From contig JYFJ02003613.1 in the NCBI GenBank assembly GCA_000934665.2, forward strand, positions 1 to 39,944: a DNA stretch of 39,944 bases. Reading direction: 5' to 3'. The position numbers were made by a program, and so were the translations under genes. Origin of the DNA: Catajapyx aquilonaris (Eukaryota). Each line of letters begins with the position of its first letter. Within the stretch, counting starts at the first letter, position 1. This document shows positions 17,153 through 32,304 of this stretch, in pieces. The notes beneath the pieces are model-generated. The model was given only the letters and a program-made list of their open reading frames with translations, ran no database searches and had not been told where the DNA came from.

Positions 17153-20100
17153 CTATAAATAAATCTGGCTCCTCCTCAGCAACGCTCTTGTTCGCTCACT
17201 CGCATGAATGCGAATGTCGTTAACCAGAACTCGTGGGTCCAATCCGTTCGGCATCATCGAAACCATTGCTGCCACGCTCACTTGCACATCGACGCCACCG
17301 ACGGACACCACAGTCTTGATCCTCTGGAGGTCGTCAACTGGCGGACTACACCCGTAGTGACTCACATACTCAGTCTTTCTGTACGCCATGATTCGAGGCA
17401 ACCGAGTCGTGGACTTCCTGGCGACAAATCTAGCCGTTGCCCGGCTGGTCGTGGACTTCCGGGCAACCTGACGATGCACGACGGGCCAGCGTGGCTCTTC
17501 CTGTACCGGCTCCTGCGTGGGCTCCGCTACGACTTTCACCTGGTATTCGACCCCGACATGCGAGATCTTAAAGTGCCGGTGTTGTACCGCCACACTTCGA
17601 GACCTGTATCCGCACACAGCGCACTCGACAAGCGCACGGATGACCTTAGCCCGCTTCAGCACAGCACCACCCGGCGACATCGACTTGCGCTTACGAGGCG
17701 CAACATCCGTTGAGCTCGACACCTGTGGACGAACCTGATTTAAAAAGGAGTTCCTCCAAAGTGTACGGTACAGTACCTTGTTGTCCGCAACTGGAGGGTT
17801 CTTCGCCTTTCCGCCTTTCTGCTTGTTCCGCAACGGCCGGATGTCGGGGCTGCTCGGCATCGGCTTGCTGACCACGCTGATGTCGCGATCCGGATGTGTC
17901 CGCAGCGAGTGCTTTCGGACCTCATAGTCTCGGACAGCCTCATAGTCGCAGTGTCCGCATCGAAACGGCTTCTGAAGCCAGTGGCGCATCTCATGCCGAC
18001 GAAGCTCCCCGGCGTTACGGTTACTGTACTCGCAATGTGAGCATCTGCAAAAAGTGGGGTTAGTCACCGAGCTTTTAACGTACACGGAGGTCATACCTGT
18101 GCATGGCGGGGTCATGTTTCTCCTCCACTTCCCCGATATCTGCAGCTTCGTTCTCCTCCGTAACCTCCACTCGGCTCCTCCCCGGCTTCAGCCCCTGAGT
18201 GTGTCTAGTCGGCTCGAAGTTCAACCTCGCCGCTTCCTGCATAGTCATCATGAACGGCTTCCAGTACATCGGCTCTAGCGCCGGTGCGTTATCGTTAATC
18301 AAAACCAATTGCGGCTGGTCCGAATGCTGCTTCCGCTGATGGGACTGCAGCATATTTTGGTTGTTGCATGACTGATGGCAGTATCCGCACCTCCATTTGC
18401 CCTGTTGGAGATGGGCCACCCGGACGTGGACTTTCAATCCGGGAAGGGCACGGACGCAGACTCCGCACTCGCGGCATATCAGGCGGTCGCTCGGATCTGG
18501 AAAAGCAGCGGTTTTAATTACATGTCAAAATTAACGTACTTGAAGTTACTAACCTTTGTACAATTTGCCTTTGGTCTCGGATGACTCTTCTTCCGCTTCC
18601 GCTTCATCTTCCTCCATCACTTCCTGCTTAACGACCACCTTTTCCGGTTCGTCTTCTTCCGGTTTGCCAATTCGCCACTCTTCAATCTCCTGCGCTTGAG
18701 TCGACAGAACTAGTGCTACCCAATCCTCAATCCCTCTGTCCGGCCGTAGCGGCGCCAAAGCCTCTCGTTTTCCCTCTTTCTTCGTATGCATCTGCCGAGA
18801 AAACGTTGGCGTCACGCTTCATCCGAGTACGACTTTGTTTACACTCATTGCGACTTACCTTGAACGAGTGCTTCTGCAGATGATTCTGACATGACGACAT
18901 GAGTCCGCAGTGAGTGCATACCCACTTCTTGTAGTTCAACTCTCGGTACAGATGATCCCGCATGTCTCGCTGGGTCTTGGTGATGTAGTGGTTGCATTTC
19001 GGACACACGTACGAAAGCTGGAAAGCGTGGCCCAATGGACCGAAAGACTTTTCCTGAAGGTCCGAGTCCATCTTTTCCTCTTCCTCGTCGTCCTCTCTCG
19101 GCTGCTGTTTGATGACGGGTTTGAAGTTCCGCATGAGCTCCTCCTGCTCCATTTCCTCAAGCTCAGCCTCGTCCGGCCAAGGTTCGTCGTCTGAATCGCC
19201 CAACGTTCCACCGTCCACGACCGGCTGCGATTCATCCAGAAGAATCCCGCGGATGTGAATTATCCTGTTGGGATCCCGTCTCCACAGCGGCCTTGTCGCA
19301 GGGTTTTCCCCGATGATCCCTTCCTCCACTTTCACCACCGTGGATACTCCTGGTACGGCAGCCGCGGACTCGTCCATCTCCTGATACCCGTACATCAGCA
19401 CAATGTGTCTCGGCAGATTCGCATGATTATCCTGGTGGTGCTTCGTTAGTGCGGAGTCCGACTTCGGGCTTCCCCTGGCAGGGCACAAGGCGCACTTGAA
19501 CTGCGCTCTCATTCCGTGGACCATTCCAGCGTGGGCCTCGGCTGCAGTGCGGGTCAAGGAGCCGAACTTGCAGAGGCAGCAACGCCAAGGTTTGAATCCC
19601 AAGTCCACATCCGCACCTTCGAAAAACAAAACGTTTAATACCGAAGCTTGTAATCCTAGGTTAAATACAACTGCGGCCAAGACACACATAAGCCGCAATT
19701 AAACTTTCACGCTCTACACACATGAACATTCAATGGTAGACATGGAATGCCCCAAACTCATCGGCTTAACCTTGGCAACAGCATTCAAGTTGAGTTCGGT
19801 TATACCTGAACATACAGCCTCCAGTACAACGCAAGTACGACTTGTTACCGAGCCGCTAAAATGTATATTAAATGCGGCCATGAATTTAAAGAGTTAACGA
19901 CGATTACGTAGCTGTCCGATGACTCCTTAAATCAGGCTGTGTTTACTTGTGATCGATTCGTTCAGCAATTGTTTGGGAGCGAAATGCGATTGCTACTTTT
20001 GGTTCACTAATACCCGAACGTACAGCCGTTCGTACGACGCAATTGGGACTCGGTACTGATCTAACACGATTGCCGCAAAAATGTCGATTGAATGCGGCCA

Positions 20101-23100
20101 CATGCGGTTTGGGAGCAAAATGCGATTGGTCTCATCGAATCGCTCGCAAGTAAACGCAGCCTTCATACCGCCATAACTCTGTAATGCAAAATGAGGATCA
20201 AATCGAAAGACGTCTATCCGAAGGAAGGAAAGTGCGGCACAATGTTACAATAATAGATCAGGTGTTTTTTCCCCTGCAGAAGCGGTGCGGACTAACCTCC
20301 AGTTAATCCAGCTCCGTCGCTGCCCCCGTCGGCCCCACCCATTCCCCCCTGGGGCACCCCTTCCTCGTGCACCTCCCGCAGGACCCTCTCCAGCGGCTTG
20401 TCCCCGGGATGCTTGTCTATCAGATGCCTCTCAACCACCGCCTGCCTCCAGTGCAGATAAGGGCAGTGTCCGCACCCGTACAGATGCGGACCGTGCAGCT
20501 TCAAGTGGGCCCCCAGACGCTCCGGAGTGGGCAGAGGCTCCTCTTCGGGGCAGTGCGGACAGGCAAAGTGGGGGAGGTCCGAGTGGAGTGCGCGCAGGTG
20601 GTGCTTGAAGATCGTCTCGTCCAGGGTCATGTAGCTGCACCCTGGTTGGGTTCAACATGTGTGTGAGGGGTGTGATATCTACTGCTAAGTGTGACGGAAA
20701 AGCTCCACACACACAATAATGAACCTGACAAGTCAGGCTTCGACAACACTATTGGAATGAAACATCGAAAAAAAAAATACGGAGGGGGTTAGTCACTTGA
20801 TACTGTAGCGTACGACAGACTTCAGCTGGACATTTCAGGACTTCAGTCGGACATTAAGGACTTCAGCGGGACTTTAAGGACTTTAGTCGGACATTAAGGA
20901 CTTCAGCTGGATTTTCAGGACTTCAGCTGGACATTTAAGGACTTCAGCCGGACTTTCAGGACTTCAGTGGGACTTTAAGGACTTCAGCGGGACTTTAAGG
21001 ACTTTAGTCGGACATTAAGGACTTCAGCTGGATTTTCAGGACTTCAGCTGGACATTTAAGGACTTCAGCCGGACTTTCAGGACTTCAGTGGGACTTTAAG
21101 GACTNAAACTTTCAGGACTTCCGTTGGACTTTTATGGACTTCAGCTGGACTTTAAGGACTTCAGCTGGACATTAAGGACTTCAAGAACTTCAAACGGACT
21201 TCAACCTCGCGAAGGACTTCGTAAGTGACTAACCCCCTCGGAAAATACACACATGCACACATGGTACAAGGGAAGCAACAAAGACCAAGATAATCTAACT
21301 ACTTCTACAGTGCATAGGACGGGAAGCAGCCGAAGGAATGGGAAATCTAAAAACAGTCTGCAGTGTTCACCGCAGACCTGAAAAAGCAGGATTTTACCGT
21401 TATTAACGCCAAGGTAAATAAAAAAAAATCACATCGAATGCAATGTTGCCATGGGCCATGCGAATCTGTACAGCCCAAATGTTAGTCCGTTAAATAAACA
21501 TGCGGTCCATAGTAATTCCCGAGGCGTACCGTGCATTCCATATCTCCCTTATTACCGCATGTTACCTTCCGATGCAAACTCACCTGTCACGCCGCATACC
21601 AGCCGTTCTTTCAGTGACACGAATTTAGGGACGGCTCCGGGCTCAAGCTGTGCCAACTGCGGCTGGAGGTTGGAGCTGGCTGCCAGGTTCGTCATCTTGT
21701 CGAACATACGCTCACTCCGCTCTAGACAAGGAACCGGGTTGACTGGGGCTACTTCCGAGGGATGCTGCGCCGCCTCTGGATCCGCCAAGTGAATGCTCAG
21801 ATGGCGGAGAAGGTTGCTGCGGACCTTGTTTCTGTATGAGCATAGCCCGCACTTCAAGGGGCGAAGGTATACAGCTTGCGGAGGAAGCAACGATGCGTCC
21901 GACGGCAGGAAAGTGTCACGAGGTTGCTTCGGTGCGTCCGGGTCGTCCGGAGGTCCGAATATGTTAAACCCTTTACGGGACATTAATTCCTTCGGGAGAA
22001 CCACAAACTCTTCTTGTTCCGGATCGTTCGATAGCGGATCAACCTGAAATTCATCGCGTTAGATTCGTCACATTGCAAGGTCAGGGTAAAGCGTACCTGT
22101 ATGATCTTCGTAGATCCGACCCTGTGCGCTTGTCGTATATGCCTGACCGCATGTTGCTGCAACGGACAACGGTGCAAACACAGGCTGCATCTGTACCGTT
22201 TCCATCCGTGTGCCCGCAAATGATCGATTAGCCCTTGCACTTGTTTGAACGCCTTGGGACAGTGCGGACAAGGAAGCGGGTTGGGCATGGTCGGTTGCTT
22301 CTCGCACACTAAAAGGTGGTCACGTAGCAATGAGGACGAGTCGAACGAGTACCCACAGCCTGGGTTTCCGCAGCGATACAAGGTCGCACCCGTCAAACCT
22401 TGGGAAAAATTGAATAAATCGCATGTTCGTACTACAAAACTTGTTACGACAGTACCTGAAACGCAAGCATTTTCGCTTGCTCTGTACGGCTCCTCGACTG
22501 GACAGTACAGCTCATCCTCGGGTGGTTGCGCCGGTTCGTTATTGCCACTTGCGACGGGAACCTGTTCGCTGGCAGTCTGATCCGTTACGCTACTACTTTC
22601 GCTGCTTGCTTCCTGACTATCGGTCCTGTCCGGTTGACTCTCGCTTTGGTCCATGCTACTATCGACAGTCATCTGAGTCGATGAAACGTCAACCGTCGAC
22701 CGACCCTCTGAAACGTCAATCGTCGACCGACCCTCTGACACATCAATCGTCGACGGACCCTCTGAAACATCAATCGTTGACTGGCTCGCTGAAACATCAA
22801 TAGTCGTTTGACTTGCTGTGACTTCAACGCTTCCGAGATCCGCCGCACTTTCTTTGTCCGCAGCTTCGTTTTCAGCCGTTTTGTTGCTAGCTACGGGCGG
22901 ATCGCTGCTTTCCTGTGCACTGATGGCCGCTTCCTCGTCATCGTCGTCCAGTACTATCACCTCGTTATTCTGTCCGCTAGACACTAACGGACCAAGCGGA
23001 ACCGGGACAGGACGGCCCAGTCTGATCCCCCGATCTTGTCCCGACCGTACGACCTCCGCAGTAGTCGTAGCCTTCGCCCCGTCGACCTGCCCTCGAACCA

Positions 23101-26100
23101 ACACCTTCCCGGACCGATTCGGATGAGCATTACAAAGGTGCAGCAGGATTTGGTTGTGCGAATCTGATCCGTGCAGACAGTACGAGCATTGGTACTGGTA
23201 TATCCCATGGTTCTTGTAATGCTGTCGATAAAATTTTCCCTCCGATTAGTTACACGCATGCCATCACTTTCGCCTTCATTTACCTGTATCAGATGTTCGG
23301 ATTTGAAGCTCACGTTGCTGCAAATAGAGCACTTGTAGATACGAGATTCGGGGTGTTCCTTGCTCAAATGATGCTTAAACGCTTCGGGATCGACTGCTCT
23401 GAACTGACATTCGCCTGTAAATAATTCGGATTGTAACGTGCTGCCATTTTTATCAGAAAAATCAGTACGCTCGATAGTCGTCAACAATGGTTGCTACGGT
23501 TGTGAAAAACCGAGGGTCCAATTAAATTTTTGTCGGTTTTAACAATGAATTTCCGTAGCAACCGTTTGTTGACGACTATGGAACGTTTCTCTGAAAGTAA
23601 AAGCGTCTCACCTTGTTTGCATAGGAAAGGCAGCACAACGTCGCCCAATCCGAGGGTGGGCCTTGATTCCTCTTCAGACGGTACGATGGGCAGGATGGGC
23701 ACGTTTATGTAGCAGCCTCGTCTGCTTGCCGCGGACGCGTGTCTCTGCTCCTGGTGCAGGTACATGTAGCTTTGGGTCGCACTGCGGTAGAAGCAGTTGC
23801 AGCACTGGAATGTGGAACGGCCGTGCTCCCAAACGATGTGCTCTAACAAGTCGTCTACGGCTGGAGCGGCGTGCATACAGTAGCTGCATCGGAGGTACTC
23901 TCTGCGGATGTTAATTAACTCGTTAGAAAATGCTGTGTGAGACTAATTAATTAAATTAATTATAGCGCGTCTAACACGTTAGAAAATGCTGCGTAAGACT
24001 AAGTAATTAAATTAATTAGAGTGGGTCGTTAAGACTCGTAACGTCATGTGGTACTCACCTCTTCCCGTCCAATCTCTCCCACAACTTGTCCGCATGTGTC
24101 GTCCCTTCCTTAGCGTCCGTAGCGTGCCTTTGAAGCAAATGGGTCTTGAACATTTCCCGGCTGTCCGTAGTCGCACTGCAATCGCGGGACATACACTTGA
24201 ACAAGTGCCGAAGCTTGTTCAGTTTGCACATCCGGTTGAACACTTCGGCTGGCTTAGTAGACAACGGCCAGCCAGGCGACGGTTGGAGAGTTGTAGCGAT
24301 TGGCGAGTTGCTGGAGGTAACAGATGCGGTCGCTCGGATCAGGACGACTGGAGGAAGGTTCGATCCGGGAAGCAAAACTGGAGCAAGGACAGGCTGTTGC
24401 GGCAAAGTCGCCGGAGCCTGAGAGGACAACGTTAGTCGATTCAACCGGTACGCGAAAAGGTTCGAACTTACGAGCGTCGCCGTGTCGACAGTGGACGCCT
24501 CGGGGTTCAGACTGACGACACTACTAATCTGCAAGGACATGGATCCGCCATCTTCATCGTCATCATCATTCCAGTCGATTAGGCCTGGTGAAATAAACCC
24601 GGATAAGTACACACGCCTCGGGAGAAACCCGCAATTCAAACTTACCATCCCATTCGGCTGGAGTGTCGTCACTCAGATTGACCACCTCCTTATGTTCGCT
24701 CAGCTTGTCGCCGCTTAGACGTCTGACTTGTAGGAATTTCGGGATTTCAGGATTCGAGATTCCCTTCTTCTCGTCCTCGGCTGTTGGGAGTTCAAATGGC
24801 GTCTGCAACGATCCGGTCAGCTTGGCGATTGTGCCGTGCAGTTGGCTCCAGCTTCTCTCTCGCTTAATCCGCTCCTCTTCCGGTTCAGGCTCGTCTATTT
24901 CAAGCGGAGGTTCGTCGTCTTGTTCCGACGGGGCGTCCGATTCCGAGTCGGTCATTAGCGAATCGGATGTTGACGATTCGTATTCGGACGATTCATCCTC
25001 GGAAAGACCTAGAAATAAATCGGAGCCTACTTTAGCGTACTGTGAGTTCGCAATTGTTTTAAAAAGCTTACTGGCGGCGTCGTCCGGTTCCTTTTCCGGC
25101 TCGGGATTCACCGCGTCTGGCGCAGTTTCCGTTGGTTCTTCCGGCACCTCCTCTTCGTCCATCGGCTCCTCTTTAACCATGGCCAGATCGGCCAGCCTTT
25201 GACTAATTCCATCCAACACTTCGGCCACACTTTGTCGTGGCTTCAAACCACGAGCCAACTCGCTTCCCAGCCGCACCCGTTCCTCCACAAGCTCGATCTC
25301 GTTTTGGGTCGGATCAATTTGGGTCAAAAATGCGGAGGGATCGGTGTCCGCGCTGCGTCTTATCCAACGTCCCTGTGGCGGTTCGGAAACTGGCTTTTTT
25401 GGGACATCAACTTTGATAGGCTCCGGTTCCGGCTCCGGCTCAGGCAGAGTCGACTCGCTTCGAAGCACAGATATCAATGTAATTTCAGCAGACGTGTGAT
25501 GAACCTCGATGTGCGCTTGAACCCTGCTGCGGCACAGTTGATAGAAGCGGCATTCATTACACATGTATACCGTCCCATCGAAAGCATCGAAATCTTCATC
25601 GTCGAGCGTCGCCACGATGTTCGCCTCGCCTTTATGACGCCTCACACGGTGGTGAGTTATCATCGAGGGCTTCCATCCACGGTATGAGCATGATCCGCAC
25701 TTGTACCTGAAAAATTCACGGTTTTAAAATAAAATTACTTGAGCGATGATACGATGCGATGTAAACGAGGCAGATCAACGTACCTGTATTCGCCGGTATG
25801 CCACGTCATATGTTCGTACATCAGCTCCTTCGAGTCAATCGGATCTCCACACAGCGCGCAGTACGAGGGCCAACTAATGTCCGTCTCATCCGCCGGGTCG
25901 ATCTCCTTCAAATGCTTCTCCGCCCTCACCGGAATCTCCACGCCCGGATGGGTCTGAACGTAATGTTGTACCAACGCCTTTCGCGAAGAGAATGGACACA
26001 TGTGGCATCGGAGCGAATCTGGGAAGTATTCGCCGCGATATTTGCGGCGACGGCCGACGGGAAATGCGCCTGTTTGTGTTCCCGGCGTCTTCTTCTTCTG

Positions 26101-29100
26101 CGGGACGATCCGCTTCCGACGACGACGTTTCCGAGGCTGAGACATCAGCGACTTTGGAGTCGATGCGTTCGACATCGTTGTGTTGATCGAGTCGTCATCA
26201 CCGTCAACGTCGATGTCCATCGCATCACGAGAATCCTCCGCAAATCTGTAAACATCAGTGGGTCATTAATCTACCCGCAACATAACGACTAACGACTTAC
26301 CCGTCGTCATCGTGGTGTGCGTCGTCCTCTTCGTCATCCTCGGATGCCACTTTAGATCCCGTCTCTTGGCTCGATTCAGGTTTGGACTCCTCAGCCGCAG
26401 ATTCAATCGGAGCATCAACTTCCGCCGTTTCCATCAGCTGGGGCTGTTCCACTACCGGCTCCTGAACCCGCTCCATTTGCCGTGCGCACCGTCTGGTAGC
26501 CAACACCTTCTTATCATCATACCCGATTTCCTTCAGGTCGGCATGAAGCCGTTCAAGTGACGAGCGTCGTTTGATCTGTCGCTTCTGAACCGGATTCGCA
26601 GCCGATTCATCTTCAGACTCGGATGAAACTCTTCTGGTAGGTGCCGCCTTTAGTAGATCAAACGGATCTGTCGGTTTAGATGCATCAGTCTTTTTAACTC
26701 TAGATCTGCCTCGTCTGGATGCGGCCATTCGTTCAACGAGAGTCATCTCCGACTCGCTGTCCGTGGTTTCTGCCAATTTCCTCAGCGCCACTTTGGGCGA
26801 AAATGACTTCTTCTTAGCCAACCTTTCTGCCAGAGATAAGTTGGATTCGCTATCCGATTCAGACTTGGCCGTAGCGATTTTCTCAGAGGCTGAATCGGAC
26901 TTGGGGTGCTTTGTGTCCGGATCTGACTTAGTCTTTTCCTGCTTCTTGTCCGTCTTTTGAGGTGATTTGTCCTTAGTTTGCGCTTCCAACTCGGAATCGC
27001 TTTCGGGCAGTATAAGCCTATGTTTCTTGTCCTTTGTCGCTTTCTTAGACCTGGTTTTCAACTCGTCCGATTCATCCGAACTGTCCTTTCCTTTCCGTTT
27101 CGATGGCGACTCTGTGCTGCTGTCCTTTCGTTTTGATGGCGATTCTGTGCTGCTGTCCTTTCGTTTGGAGATTCGATCGGCACTTTTACGTCTTCGTCTC
27201 GCCCTGTCCGAATCACTAGAGCTGTCCCGCTTTGACTTCGATTTGTCCCGCTTCCTTCTGCGGTCACTGTCCGAGTCGCTACGTTGCTTCCGCCGCTTAT
27301 GATCATCCGAGTCCGAACCCCTCTTTGATTTATCCCGTCTTCGACTGTCCGAGTCCGACTCCGAATCCGAACTAGAATCCGATTCGCTATCGGACACCAT
27401 CCTGTTCTTCCTCTTAGTCTTCCGTTTCTTACTCTTCTTACTTCCGGAGTTATCGCGAATACTGCTAATCAGCTCTTTGAACAAATCGGCCAAGTCTCCC
27501 TTCTTGGTGTCCTTTCCAAGCAATGCGGACAAGTCTGATTCGAGTGACGACTCTGCTGGTGGTTCACTCTGCGGTTGCGGCGGTGACGGCTCAGGTTGCG
27601 GTACAGGAAGCGGCGGAGCTTCTCCCTTTTTAATCTTTGGGATTTTAAACTTCTGAAGCCCGTAACCTTTCCCGGTTTGGGTATCCGCGGATTTGACGTC
27701 GTAAAGCGAGTCGAGCGGGGACTTAATGTTGGACTGCGGCTGAAGCGGTGGTGGTCTGAACCCCTTTCCGAACCCCTTTCCTGAATGAATCGCATCCCGC
27801 TGTGCACGCAAACGTGCTTCAGCCTTCTTCCTTTCATCGTGTCGTTCCTTCCGCATCATTGCCTTGCTCTGGAAGTTTAAAAAAAACGTTAGTTTCATTG
27901 CGAACTGCCTTAGTCGAATTAAATCCCATTTGCAGAACTTACTCTATGGTTGTCCTGCTTTGTTTGTAGCTTGTTAACATGATATGGCTTTTGCGGCTCT
28001 TTCTGCGGCGCCTGTGGACCCGCCCTGTGTGTCGGGCGTTGATCTGGAACTCTCGGTTCCTCTCGTCTCATGTCCGTCCCTCTTCCCTCGTTCTTATGCG
28101 GCCTGGGGTCGTGAATAGGAGGCTTTCCAGCTGCGAACGGCTGCTCCCATGGCTTCTGGTTCATCCCAAACGAGGTGGACGGCCTGGTTATGAGCGGCTT
28201 TCGGACTGTCAGTTGCGGCAAAGGCGGCGGAAGAGGTCGTGGCTTCCATTGCGAGGGACCAGGCTGCTGGTGAACCACAGGCTGCTGGTGAAGCATCGGC
28301 TGCGGTTGGAGCATCGGCTGCGGTTGTAGCATCGGCTGCGGTTGTAGCATCGGCGGCTGGTTGATCAGCTGCGGACGCTGTTGTTGGAAGATCATCTGAG
28401 GCTTCGGTGGCATTATCGGCGGCTTCTGTTGCATTATCAGCGGCTGGTTGAAACGTGGTTGGCGACCCTACAATTTTTCACAAACAAAAAGTTGACATTG
28501 TGACTTTCACCAAACAAACAGTTACGTACTATTGATGTGACGACTCCGATTGGTTGGTGTTGCTGTGGCGGAGTTGGATGCCTCGGTGGTGTCTGATATG
28601 CTGGCCTGTAGTGAGCCACGTCCGTCTCAATCAGCGGCACTATGCCTTTCGGTTGAGATATCGGCAAGATCGGCTGTGATGGCGGCGGAACCGGAGTCGG
28701 AGTTGACGTGAGATGAACCGGAATTGGTCGTCCTAATGGTGGAGGATGAGTCGGGGAAGGATGGGAACTGGTGCTAGAAGCTGGCGAGTTCCATGGGCCG
28801 CCTCGGGGACTGTTTTTATGTAAAAATGGCGGCGGAGACATGGTTGACATCTGCAAACAAAAGTTGTTAACGATTGAAGTTCCTGTAAACGCAACTGACT
28901 AACCTCCTTCGGATCGCTGTTTCGCCTGAGACGCGGATCTCTCGATTCGCCTCCAGCAGTGTGCGGCAAATTACGTGGATCCGGCATGTTACGTGGATCC
29001 GGCATATTGCGAGGATCCGGTAAATTGCGCGGATCCCGCACTCTCGGATCCCGACATGGCACTGCGGCCACATTTCCCGCTGCCATCCGTCCCATACGAT

Positions 29101-32100
29101 GTATCTCCATCACGTCCTCCTTCAGCCGCGACTTAACGCCTTTCTTGTCAGCGTCAGACTGTCTGGACTCCTCCTCATTCTTGGTCCATTCCTGCATCAG
29201 ATCGTTGAGGTCAGTGTCCGACAGCGGCGGACCCGAGAGCCGACTCCGCATTCTAGCCAAATCCAGCGTAATCTCCTCTCTGTCCGGGACATGCGAATCA
29301 GGTCCCAGCAGCGGAATTTGCGGGGAGTCTTCATTCACAAGCGGAATTTGCGGGCTGTCGTATGATACCGATGGGGATGAACCTTCCGAATCTGTGTGGC
29401 CCATCAGCTTCTTCAGCTTCTCCAGGCCGTGCTTTAAGATCGTGCCTTTGGGTTCCCCCGAGTGGGTCGAGTTGTGCTCATTCTCGGGCCGAACCGCGAC
29501 CTTCAGACGCTGGAGAGTATGTTGGAGCATCGAGGTGTCAGGCGACGAATGCCGGAAGAGATCGTTCTCCAGGTTGTGGTTCAGCATCTTGCTCATCACC
29601 TGCGGACAACAAATTCAAAGCCCCTTCACTAGTCGAACGGCATGAAAATGGAGCTGGATTTAAGCCAACTGAAGCTACCGTCAATTGTTCGAAATTATTA
29701 CTCAAACATCTCGGGCAGGTATGTTTTCTAATGTAAACTTGTGCACCAGAATTATCAAAATATCCGTCCGTACCTGTATTGGCTTTAGACCAACAGGTGG
29801 CCTTTCCACATTCGATCCCATCCTTAGATCGGCCCTAGGTGGCGGCGGCGGCGGCTGCTGCTGCTGCTGCGGTGGCGGTGGTTTAGACGTGGGTCCATAG
29901 CCAAAAGACGCCTCGGTCGGAATAATCATGGGCTGCTTCACCCTCGGGTCAAACCGAGCCGCATTGAACTTGTGCTCAGGGCTGGGGCTCCTCGGAGTCG
30001 GGCTTGCTGGCTTTTCCGCAGGTGGCATCTCTTCGTCGTCGTCTCGAAGCTCTCCTTCCTCCGGGCTGTCCACGTAGGACCTTGAATGCACCGCGGAAAG
30101 TTGGGGAGGCTTCTTAAGGGTGGGAACGGGTCTAGACAACTGTTTGTCAGACTCGGGCTTGTAAATGTTAACTTTGGGGGCTTCGGGCTCGGAAAACGCT
30201 CTTGGTGGTGGGCTGCATGAAGCGTGAGGAACGCAGAGAAGCAAAAGACAAAGCACAAAAATAAATAAGCACAAAAATAAATAAAAAATTATAAAAATAA
30301 ATAGGAATAAAAACAAATAATCCCTTCGAAGGAATAAACATAAAAGCCAAATGTGACGAGCAAGGATAATTAGTAGCATGCAGGATTTAAAAGCACATGA
30401 GACATATCCTTTAAAAAAAAGTACTCAAGTAAATGTACATGCAATTATCGACACCACATACCCTAATTAATTACAACTCATGACCATATTTATGCGGAGG
30501 AAAATACTACTAACAAAAAAGGTCGTACATACACTAAGAAGTGTAATTATAGACCCAAATTATTTAAAATTGAGGCCATTAATATGCTAATTTATTTTAG
30601 GGCTTCATTATTTTTAACGAACTGAACTATACATCAGGTCTGCCGTTTTGTGATTAAGATTAATTAGTACACTTACAGTTGCCTTGTTTTTGGTACTCTG
30701 TCGCCCAACTTTTGCGACTTAACGGCAAACGAGAGGCCTCCTTTTGATGCTCCCGAAGCTGCGTTTCTACTCCCAGATCGATCTCCCAAGTTGCCGTCAT
30801 TCGGCTGCAATATAAAGTAAAATTACACATATCACGTTCACAGTTATTACCTGATTCATGCAGTATTTTTTTTCTCTATAATCTAAAAATATCAACTTAC
30901 GCCATTAACCTTCTCGTACAGCTTCAGTAATACTTCCTCGCAGCGATAGAGGGTCGCAATCTTCAACCTGAAATCAACAAGGCCGTATCTTTTTTATAGT
31001 CGGCACATCATGACCTTCCCTCACAAAAATATTATCATTTCCTTATCTTCATATGCTTTGTTTACCAGTAATGCCAACAAATGTTATAAACAGGCCGAAC
31101 TTAGAATAAGTACTTTATGTGCTGCTATGGCGAGCCTTATGGACTCGGCCCGTTCAAAATGTAATCTTCTGGCCGAGGAATTTTCAAGTGTACTTCTGTC
31201 ACATGTGACGGACACAGTAAATATTATGTTGTGCGCTTCTATGTAATTGAAGGCTAATCGATTTTTTTTTTTTGCCAAACCCACTTTTTGTTAGGGTCGG
31301 CTAGTATGTCGTAGAGGGACTTCATCTTTTTCAGCTGAGCGTCCCTGCTGTGATCTTTGGCCTTCTGGAGCTTGTTAATCATGTCCTCGAGGAAGGGCAT
31401 GAACTTCTTCATCTCCTTCAGCTTGTCTTGGTAACGAGCCTCCTCCGACATGGCAGGTTTGGCAGAGACAGATGACGAAGAGGACGTCCCCCCGCCATCT
31501 AGAGAGTGAAAGGCTCCGTGATATAAAAAGGAATACATAGCAACGCAGAAATTCATTTACAGTGTACGACCTGAGGTACCGCATAAAATAACTGAACCAA
31601 ATAATGAAATATTACGTAAACAGGAGGAAACGATTACATTCATTATTCGCAAATAACCAGCTTTTTAACTAAATTGAAATAAAGAGCAAATGAACTATTT
31701 ACACAAATTGAAATAAATAGTACTTGGCTACATAAATTGAAAAAGCAATTACATTGAAATAAAGAGCAATTAGCTACCTACATGAATTGAAAGCAAGAGC
31801 AACTAGCTATTTAAATCAAGAGCGATTAGCTATTATCAAATTATTACTTGCTACTGTAATTAGGAAATAAATAGCAATCAGCAAATATTCAAAATTGACA
31901 TTATAAGCTGAGTATATGAAGGCAAATATATTGTATTATTAAAAATCTGACATTTAACGAACCTGGGAAATTAAAAGTAATTAAGAGTTAATGAAACTGA
32001 CACAAAAAAAATGTAGTGAAGCGTATTTAAAATTGACAATATTCTTAAACATTATCAGTCGAGTATTACGAGGGAATAATTTTACAAAATGACACTTAAC

Positions 32101-32304
32101 GTACCTCAAATTAACAGTAATTAAGTGCTTAATCAAACTGTAGTGAAGCAAAACTATTTAAAACCAGAATATATCCTTAAATATTATCAGTTATTATTAT
32201 GAGTGAATTGAACGTTTTACAAACTGACACTTAGCTTCAAATTAAAGAGTAATTAAGTAGTAAACAACATTACCTGTCTCAGGTTTATTCCCCTGGAATA
32301 CCAT
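17153..32304 (-). CDS. sov: Very large multi-C2H2 zinc-finger nuclear protein with N-terminal MED15-central-like domain; probable small ovary (Sov)-like heterochromatin factor, ~3,525 aa
   Basis: Phase-consistent exons: 32304-32274, 31498-31285, 30967-30901, 30804-30677, 30212-29774, 29599-28904, 28850-28530, 28467-27943, 27868-26301, 26245-25784, 25706-24646, 24584-24059, 23901-23612, 23414-23284, 23221-22456, 22398-22097, 22043-21584, 20641-20297, 19616-18859, 18791-18554, 18496-18097, 18044-17777, 17734-17153. They sum to 10578 nt, divisible by 3. About 26 C2H2-type fingers counted by eye. The gene model is strong; the sov identity is inferred from size and architecture only (about 0.6). 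Confidence 0.88.
19935..20161. mobile_element. MITE-like element with PIF/Harbinger-like TIRs, intronic
   Basis: GGCTGTGTTTACTTGTGATCGATTCG versus the reverse complement of the right end, GGCTGCGTTTACTTGCGAGCGATTCG (23/26). TSD ambiguous. Confidence 0.65.
20781..21241. mobile_element. Non-autonomous TIR element enclosing a ~20-bp tandem array, flanked by a direct repeat
   Basis: GAGGGGGTTAGTCACTT ... AAGTGACTAACCCCCTC perfect 17-bp TIR. AAAATAC on both flanks. Interior (ggacttcagctggactttaa)n with one N at 21105. Confidence 0.85.

Follow-up and report, generated by a model that had tools for sequence, protein, structure and literature searches.

What kind of gene encodes a long, motif-rich zinc-finger protein, and which of its short motifs are genuine docking sites? 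We address these questions for contig JYFJ02003613.1 of the Catajapyx aquilonaris assembly GCA_000934665.2, whose positions 1 to 39,944 constitute the window analyzed here (all coordinates are window positions, and the gene in question is on the minus strand). An earlier note, made from the letters of the DNA alone, had read the part from 17153 to 32304 as a candidate scaffold protein that links SUMO and HP1 heterochromatin to the co-transcriptional shut-off of RNA. We conclude with considerable confidence that the gene is a member of the arthropod Small ovary (Sov) family, most likely the Sov orthologue, and that its product is a giant nuclear scaffold. The family, which the earlier note did not recognize, is assigned because of the architecture of the protein, the sequence and fold of its N-terminal domain, and its collinear relatives. 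The proposed scaffold role matches that published for fly Sov and is thus supported by homology, not by the joint presence of short motifs. The kind of gene is already known; two of its features, the RDPR motifs and a twin ARKST peptide, are undescribed in the portions of the Sov literature covered here, supplementary interaction tables aside.

Gene structure and the Small ovary family

The gene occupies 17153..31451 as a single intact unit of 19 exons and 18 introns. The joined model has a coding sequence of 10,446 nucleotides (nt), comprising 3,481 codons plus the stop, and is translated into 3,481 residues without an internal stop. All features had previously been placed in one reading frame, but the minus-strand open reading frames (ORFs) between 17153 and 31556 change frame every few hundred bases, and the exons use all three minus-strand frames. 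To obtain the model, GT/AG pairs between adjacent frames were scored and the best pairs were joined. Exons 1–7 are located at 31451-31285, 30967-30901, 30187-29774, 29599-28904, 28850-28530, 28467-27943 and 27868-26301; exons 8–13 at 26245-25784, 25706-24646, 24584-24059, 23901-23612, 23414-23284 and 23221-22097; and exons 14–19 at 22043-21584, 20641-20297, 19616-18859, 18791-18554, 18496-18097 and 18044-17153. Every intron (18/18) has GT-AG ends, with lengths of 52-77 nt in 11 of the 18 and 157-942 nt in the rest. In a tblastn comparison with four full-length insect relatives, the matches run collinearly from 31451 to 17204, covering the N-terminal domain through the tail, and the exon ends agree. 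The predicted model is least secure at exon 3, whose acceptor (30187) is weak and lacks orthologue support. Translation would begin at 31451 or at the in-frame alternative 31556; coding evidence was sought in 31452-32304 and none was found.

The encoded protein consists of a Med15-like three-helix N-terminal domain, ~1,300 disordered residues that include DPR motifs as well as P/Q-rich and K/R/S/D-rich stretches, ~25 dispersed zinc fingers, and a tail with the twin ARKST. When the last exon was searched against 1.84 billion representatives, 2,956 matches were obtained at E ≤0.001, mostly through the repeated double finger. Among 151 retrieved proteins, 13 carry A[RK]KS[TA]; in 3 of the 13 (4,323, 5,141 and 5,349 residues), which also have a Med15-like start, this sequence is near the C-terminus, in two of them as a twin. 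A homologue search restricted to proteins of 603-2000 residues gave fragments only.

The gene proved to be collinear with uncharacterized proteins of 3,400-5,300 residues from insects and a shrimp, many of which carry the Pfam domain PF21538. These relatives come from Orthoptera (Anabrus, Gryllus and six Schistocerca species), Coleoptera (Agrilus, Aquatica, Pyrocoelia and Euwallacea), Hymenoptera (two Microctonus species, Venturia and Cephus), Thysanoptera (Megalurothrips), Lepidoptera (Spodoptera and Mythimna), Ephemeroptera (an Ephemera fragment) and the decapod Penaeus, with several further fragments; each carries the label 'uncharacterized' or 'hypothetical'. The window protein is nearest to the orthopteran members (38.4% identity over 680 residues, E 2.7e-128). 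For the family alignment, the window model was combined with 14 full-length relatives to give 15 proteins; Gryllus (tail missing from its model), one of the two near-identical Microctonus proteins and five of the six Schistocerca were left out. In the literature consulted, Sov has been studied solely in Drosophila. The collinear relatives put the origin of the Sov scaffold no later than the divergence of insects and decapods, and the short motifs kept over that time now become visible.

The N-terminal domain (residues 9-77; 30904..31427) is a helical bundle resembling MED15 ABD3. Intron 1 splits it, such that the third helix resides on a separate 67-nt exon 2 (30967-30901). Exon 1 matches the Pfam family Med15_M (PF21538; E 1.1e-8, 35.7 bits with a cut-off of 24.2) and human MED15 chains (E 4.5e-10), bearing out the MED15-like start, if not the single frame, described before. 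A profile built from eleven family N-terminal domains matched MED15 (E 2.4e-13) and then, over its full length, 7MKK_B, annotated as 'Small ovary' (E 0.0042). The latter was the sole full-length match apart from MED15, all lower matches being partial and weaker. The fold evidence comes from the domain of a beetle orthologue, the window's own domain being spread over two exons. The AlphaFold model of the beetle domain has a predicted local distance difference test (pLDDT) score of 74.9. In a Foldseek search of 350,542 chains, it placed human MED15 ABD3 (8J9A, query-normalised TM-score 0.70) at rank 1 and the crystal structure of the Panoramix-Sov N-terminal domain complex (7MKK, target-normalised TM-score 0.81) at rank 2, each with a probability of 1.00, compared with at most 0.28 for the next match. 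We also mapped the residues of the Panoramix groove in fly Sov (L54, L57, L60, I74, I77, L81, K73 and K80) onto the profile alignment. The two lysines correspond to K/R in the family, and hydrophobic character is retained at every hydrophobic position but one of the six, I74, where a conserved Cys is found; these residues fail to tell Sov from MED15 because MED15 has the same ones. About 90 residues after the domain, a hydrophobic patch, MIIPTE (29912..29929), resembles a SUMO-interacting motif (SIM) and is a candidate SUMO binder; [IVMT][IV]IP[TV]E, a PIVIPTE-type patch, occurs at aligned positions in 7 of the 15 full-length family members.

Drosophila melanogaster Sov (CG14438), at 3,313 residues, is close in size to the window protein. 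The likeness includes a Med15-like helical domain at the very start of the chain, ~1,300-1,500 residues of disordered sequence, ~21-25 C2H2 fingers toward the C-terminus and, at the sequence level, several PxVxL-type HP1 sites, one of which is in the extreme C-terminal tail. As described in the portions of the report by Andreev et al. covered here (10.1101/2021.07.27.453956), fly Sov has ~1,500 N-terminal residues without annotated domains followed by 21 C2H2 fingers. A bundle within its first 100 residues binds an LxxLL-type helix of Panoramix, and two SIMs that flank this domain favour SUMOylated Panoramix. The corresponding portions of the preprint by Foldi et al. (10.64898/2026.08.12.744517) present Sov as a scaffold with five PxVxL-variant HP1a sites, place HBS5 and a phase-separating region in the extreme C-terminus (last ~110-160 residues), and report that TEsup1, a factor of RNA decay, is contacted through a proline motif and that silencing by RNA-tethered Sov needs exosome adaptors and Su(s)/ZC3H4. 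The sov2 allele deletes the last 152 residues (10.1101/383265, same restriction). These sources describe Sov as a link between HP1 heterochromatin, the decay of nuclear RNA and SUMO-dependent recruitment by the PIWI-interacting RNA pathway.

By analogy with the fly protein, the N-terminal bundle would hold a recruiter, which in flies is Panoramix, by its acidic amphipathic helix, and SUMO bound to hydrophobic patches close by would assist. The disordered half would, through its motifs, hand nascent transposon RNA over to nuclear decay and termination factors, and several PxVxL-type sites would bind the HP1 chromoshadow dimer, stabilising heterochromatin.

The C-terminal tail and the DPR motifs

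Motif counts in the window protein were compared with 2000 shuffles keeping local composition, and those in the 15 family proteins with 300 shuffles each; the 15 sequences are mutually related, and the family-wide counts are not independent events. ARKST occurs twice in the window protein (17450-17464 and 17408-17422, 14 residues apart in a disordered tail), against 0.01 expected, a count reached in 0/2000 shuffles. The twin pointed out in the earlier note is thereby confirmed, and it is conserved in the family. In an alignment of 19 tails (the window, the 14 full-length relatives and four fragments), the first site reads A[RK]KS in all 19 and the second A[RKM]KS in 17/19, being degenerate in Schistocerca and Euwallacea. 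The two lysines are 10-22 residues apart across the 19 tails and are followed by a [SW][YF]YG motif, and 18/19 tails end in P-x-[VI]-x-[VLI].

In the window protein, the sequence after the twin forms a C-terminal mini-module (17222..17362) composed of SHYG, a beta-hairpin plus helix (17255-17317) and PRVLV (17222-17236), a candidate HP1 site judging by its sequence. The AlphaFold model computed from the tail alignment shows no secondary structure in the ARKST part (pLDDT 55-68), whereas the hairpin and short helix are predicted at pLDDT ~93, so that only ~25 residues of the tail are ordered. The twin ARKST precedes the terminal PxVx[VL] by ~60-75 residues.

In the beetle tails, both sites read TARKST, the sequence of residues 6-11 of histone H3. 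The second site extends to ARKSTGGK in the last 100 residues of the thrips protein and of one relative (P0166 and P0167); this equals H3 residues 7-14, eight identical residues.

The conserved core A-R-K-S/T in a region predicted to be accessible resembles mimics of the H3K9 type (G9a ARKT, H1.4 ARKS and ADNP ARKS). In the part of the ADNP study covered here, the ARKS context is described as common to H3K9, H3K27, H1K26 and G9a K165 (PMC3022755). The same part reports that the ARKS and PGVLL sites of ADNP, ~55 residues apart, cooperate in HP1-dependent localisation to heterochromatin, and that neither methylation nor chromodomain binding of the ADNP ARKS was detected. Like the window protein with its twin ARKST and terminal PxVx[VL], ADNP is a zinc-finger protein that combines ARKS with a PxVxL-type site. 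In ADNP, however, both motifs are located in a homeodomain, whereas in the window protein they are duplicated and placed in a disordered tail, and there is no sequence homology between the two proteins.

The second feature is the DPR tripeptide, which occurs nine times in the window protein against 1.37 expected (reached in 0/2000 shuffles). A cluster (28925..29056, residues 398-441) holds seven copies and includes the conserved core SRDPRLRRNS; by the shuffle count, six copies fall within 50 residues. This cluster, too, had been noticed before, and its enrichment is conserved: the family-wide count is 74 against 15.7 expected, ~5-fold, and was reached in 0/300 shuffles. Between three and nine copies are found in 14 of the 15 members and one in Agrilus; [RKV]DPR[RLIMD] is present in 15/15, and the RDPR[RL]R core is aligned. 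As a separate observation, the DPR units have expanded independently and with unlike repeat units in the firefly (a 14-residue unit, 7 DPR), the wasp (7), the shrimp (9) and the window protein (a 6-residue unit). These expansions reflect either selection for more copies or a slippage-prone region.

DPR is a validated ligand of WDR82 in SET1A, ZC3H4 and fission-yeast Symplekin, and changing DPR to AAA abolishes WDR82 binding of SET1A/B, ZC3H4 and fission-yeast Symplekin, according to the portions of PMC9911701 and PMC13710762 considered here. The Sov family shares the tripeptide and its position in disordered or loop regions with these WDR82 partners. Su(s), the ZC3H4 homologue, is required for Sov-tethered silencing in flies (10.64898/2026.08.12.744517). 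The family differs in that its DPR is multiplied, to three or more copies in all members but Agrilus.

We tentatively propose, as a possibility that we consider much less likely than its opposite, that the Sov family bears two old docking devices, an H3-tail-like twin ARKST tail and multiplied WDR82-binding RDPR motifs. The family-wide RDPR motifs might dock WDR82, a component of the Restrictor and PNUTS-PP1 termination complexes, and such a contact would tie Sov physically to transcription termination by both. The twin ARKST might copy the H3K9 site, being written and read like H3K9 or competing with it, and together with the terminal PxVx[VL] it could form a multivalent HP1 dock. If H3K9 methyltransferases methylate the two tail lysines, an HP1 dimer could read them with its two chromodomains while its chromoshadow interface holds the terminal PxVx[VL]. 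The tail would then act as a three-point HP1 clamp, possibly turned off by serine phosphorylation. If true, the two devices would suggest answers to two questions that arise from the fly work: the ARKST tail for the connection of Sov with H3K9 methylation and HP1, and the RDPR motifs for the contact between RNA-tethered Sov and the machinery of termination. If neither lead holds, the finding amounts to an ordinary orthologue annotation.

In the literature searched, no paper names both 'small ovary' and 'Wdr82'. The covered text of the Foldi preprint (10.64898/2026.08.12.744517), supplementary tables excluded, contains no mention of Wdr82, DPR, ARKS or 'histone mimic', and that of the Andreev preprint (10.1101/2021.07.27.453956), again without the supplementary tables, none of Wdr82. 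A 2025 exosome preprint does not mention Wdr82, Restrictor or DPR in its covered portion, and 'small ovary' was absent among the matches listed for histone-mimic, ARKS and H3K9-mimic literature.

Other short motifs and alternative readings

PxVxL pentapeptides exist in the window protein, as had been claimed, but their number, three, is at chance level (1.41 expected; reached in 344/2000 shuffles), and conservation is confined to particular sites. Family-wide, PxVx[LVI] is found 71 times against 47.2 expected (reached in 0/300 shuffles). PKVAL, in the basic context FSPKVALRK (26777..26803), is a candidate HP1 chromoshadow site of the PxVxL type. It is aligned as P[KR]V[VL][LI]EK in 8 of the 15 proteins and fits the published rule of a basic-flanked PxVxL in a disordered region. 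The variant QISSVVSLNPE (24499..24531; x-V-V-S-L) is another candidate HP1 site; [IV].[SCN]V[VIAT][ST]L is found in 14/15 members by a pattern that ignores position, and the site is also aligned in the family alignment. Neither this site nor the C-terminal PRVLV had been singled out previously. The canonical PPVVL is not kept at its aligned position, nor is PPVGL, and both were rejected as conserved HP1 sites.

Several observations weigh against the Sov assignment or the scaffold role. The 19-exon structure is a prediction from sequence, and orthology to fly Sov beyond the N-terminal domain is inferred from architecture. The N-terminal domain is far nearer to MED15 than to fly Sov (the profile E-values given above), and its similarity to the latter is weak. 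The Foldseek E-values are weak as well (0.014 for 8J9A and 0.19 for 7MKK), and no dipterans are among the 22 listed matches of the family search. Unlike fly Sov, the window protein has no hydrophobic run or SIM before its N-terminal domain, and Panoramix, the N-terminal partner in flies, is fast-evolving. Part of the window DPR run is a recent 18-nt tandem repeat (28964-29040, encoding the 6-residue unit). Finally, the family-wide counts of two motif classes are those expected by chance: psi-K-x-E occurs 105 times against 105.7 expected (reached in 157/300 shuffles), and SIM-like cores occur 109 times against 127.6 expected (reached in 276/300).

One alternative is an ordinary sequence-specific poly-zinc-finger transcription factor, in which the short motifs are low-complexity by-products with no docking role. 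In the window protein, PxVxL is at chance, as noted, and so are psi-K-x-E (5 against 3.73 expected; reached in 649/2000 shuffles) and SIM-like cores (16 against 15.07; 894/2000), including those with acidic flanks (8 against 4.53; 159/2000). The four psi-K-x-E sites named in the earlier note, VKEE (25166-25177), IKRE (24857-24868), VKVE (19324-19335) and VKQE (18621-18632), all exist, but at a chance frequency and with 0/4 conserved at the aligned position, and we rejected them as SUMO acceptors. Its SIM-like arrays fared no better. The TIDVS array of 9-residue units (22676..22819), a 27-nt tandem repeat of 5.4 copies (22673-22818), has no orthologue counterpart, and the strong SIM-like motif EVIVLDDDDEE (22931..22963) is not conserved at its position; both are lineage-specific and were rejected as conserved SIMs. 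The DPR run, too, is partly a tandem repeat. We nevertheless regard this explanation as improbable: at least ten non-finger blocks are conserved collinearly between the window protein and insects, five of them also in the shrimp; 17-19 of the 19 tails retain the twin ARKST and the terminal PxVx[VL]; the ~5-fold enrichment of DPR extends over the 15 proteins; and the N-terminal domain has a known peptide-binding fold. Across orthologues, then, DPR enrichment, the twin ARKST, PKVAL, QISSVVSL and the C-terminal PRVLV are conserved, whereas psi-K-x-E, TIDVS, EVIVLDDDD and PPVVL are not.

We consider two further identities, each of them very unlikely. In the first, the gene would be the invertebrate counterpart, by orthology, of ZNF462/ZFP462, a vertebrate protein with many fingers and a role in targeting G9a/GLP-HP1 heterochromatin. 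The Pfam model of the seventh ZNF462 finger is matched above its cut-off by one finger in the last exon (PF23225, 34.3 bits with a cut-off of 27), with two more matches below threshold and zf-C2H2 matches too. Bird and fish ZNF462 proteins match a beetle query weakly, over 12% of its length (E 2e-8 to 3e-5). Like the window protein, ZNF462 is a giant whose numerous C2H2 fingers, of the PF23225 subtype, come in pairs set far apart, and the link of ZFP462 to heterochromatin, HP1 included, is reported in the covered part of its literature. However, when two ZNF462 proteins were compared with the model by blastp, only 1-2 non-collinear finger matches emerged (E ~1e-5). The two proteins lack all 8 of 8 signature motifs (NPVP.L, MFD.M, IRGI, A[RK]KS[TA], RRLSGD, SPLxSLY, IP[TV]E[RK] and DPR), and none of the other ZNF462-specific Pfam domains listed for them was matched in the window. 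ZNF462, which has no N-terminal domain, DPR, linker blocks or ARKST tail of this kind, shares only a finger subtype with the window protein and is not collinear with it, and orthology was rejected.

In the second, the Med15-like N-terminal domain would make the protein a mimic of MED15 that binds activation domains, acting as a co-activator or decoy with or against Mediator instead of as a silencer. MED15 ABD3 (Pfam Med15_M; 8J9A and 7EMF chain O) is indeed the top match of the N-terminal domain in both sequence and fold, ahead of fly Sov. This is, however, the single domain in common, which in the window gene starts a zinc-finger giant: a Pfam scan of 17 ORFs found no MED15 region besides PF21538. 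Moreover, the Med15-like domain of fly Sov itself binds a repressor peptide and is required for silencing, as stated in the covered part of 10.1101/2021.07.27.453956, and the remaining architecture matches Sov. We accordingly retain membership in the Sov family as the preferred identity of the gene.

Conserved blocks, fingers and neighbouring sequence

The compositional regions reported in the earlier note are borne out. The Pro/Gln-rich disordered region (27973..28847, residues 450-720) has 38% P+Q against 14% in the whole protein and contains 18-, 21- and 36-nt tandem repeats, and the K/R/S/D-rich disordered region (26834..27451, residues 870-1075) has 71% K+R+S+D against 30%. Poly-proline runs are found at residues 183-196. 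The ~26 fingers counted earlier also hold up. An overlapping pattern search identified 24 C2H2 fingers, one C2HC finger and one degenerate finger, the first at residue 1333 of 3,481, and 24 matches to the finger pattern compare with 1.3 expected (reached in 0/2000 shuffles). The zinc-finger half (17558..26007) consists mostly of paired fingers with conserved linker blocks between them. An ESM Atlas look-up of the last exon returned generic zinc-finger clusters only, ZNF507 included.

The best-conserved non-finger block, APVNPVPCLERSERMFDKMTNLAASSN (21669..21749), has on average 10.1 of 14 orthologues identical per residue. This 27-residue block between fingers, PVNPVPCLE..MFDKM.NLA.SS, shows the top conservation of the whole family, with NPVP.L and [MH]FD[KT]M each in 15/15 members, and no Pfam match to it was found. 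Other conserved segments are RRLSGDKLS (24698..24724; R[RK]L[SP]GD in 12/15) and the block RPLWRRDPNRIIHIRGILLD (19234..19293; [IL]RGI in 12/15), which ends in a SIM-like hydrophobic-acidic run. PLWRRD...IRGILL[DE]E and IEDWV also count among the conserved islands.

In the disordered half, the block SPLDSLY...GKGYGLQKFKIPKIKK (27626..27721) has 59-62% identity by tblastn to the crickets Anabrus and Gryllus. Across the family, this SPLDSLY...GYGLQKFKIPKIK block retains SPLxSLY in 11/15 and GYG..F.IPK in 14/15 members. The SPL[DEN]SLY sequence (at 1111 in orthologue P0035, 1072 in P0137, and in others) has L-D-S-L in common with the MLDSLL helix by which Panoramix binds the N-terminal domain of fly Sov, and the block might serve that domain as a ligand, either internally or in self-association. 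A complex prediction of the block with the family N-terminal domain, made with beetle sequences, gave a score of 0.02 against a mark of 0.34, which is evidence neither way.

The Penaeus japonicus orthologue (P0177) contains an RNA-recognition motif (RRM; PF00076, residues 1220-1287, E 1.7e-7) in its disordered half. Neither the window gene nor any of three further relatives included in the scan gave an RRM match, and the Penaeus RRM may be a lineage-specific gain or the product of a merged gene model.

Intron 14 harbours a satellite (20818-21183) of ~18 copies of a 20-nt unit, also readable as 40- or 121-nt units. The sole N of the window (21105) lies within it and may represent an assembly gap inside the repeat. 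No exon seems to have been lost at this intron because the orthologue alignments run unbroken across it. Downstream of the Sov-family gene, a minus-strand ORF at 2021-2827 encodes three FG-GAP repeats (Pfam PF01839, E 3.4e-28), which suggests an exon from an integrin-alpha-like gene.

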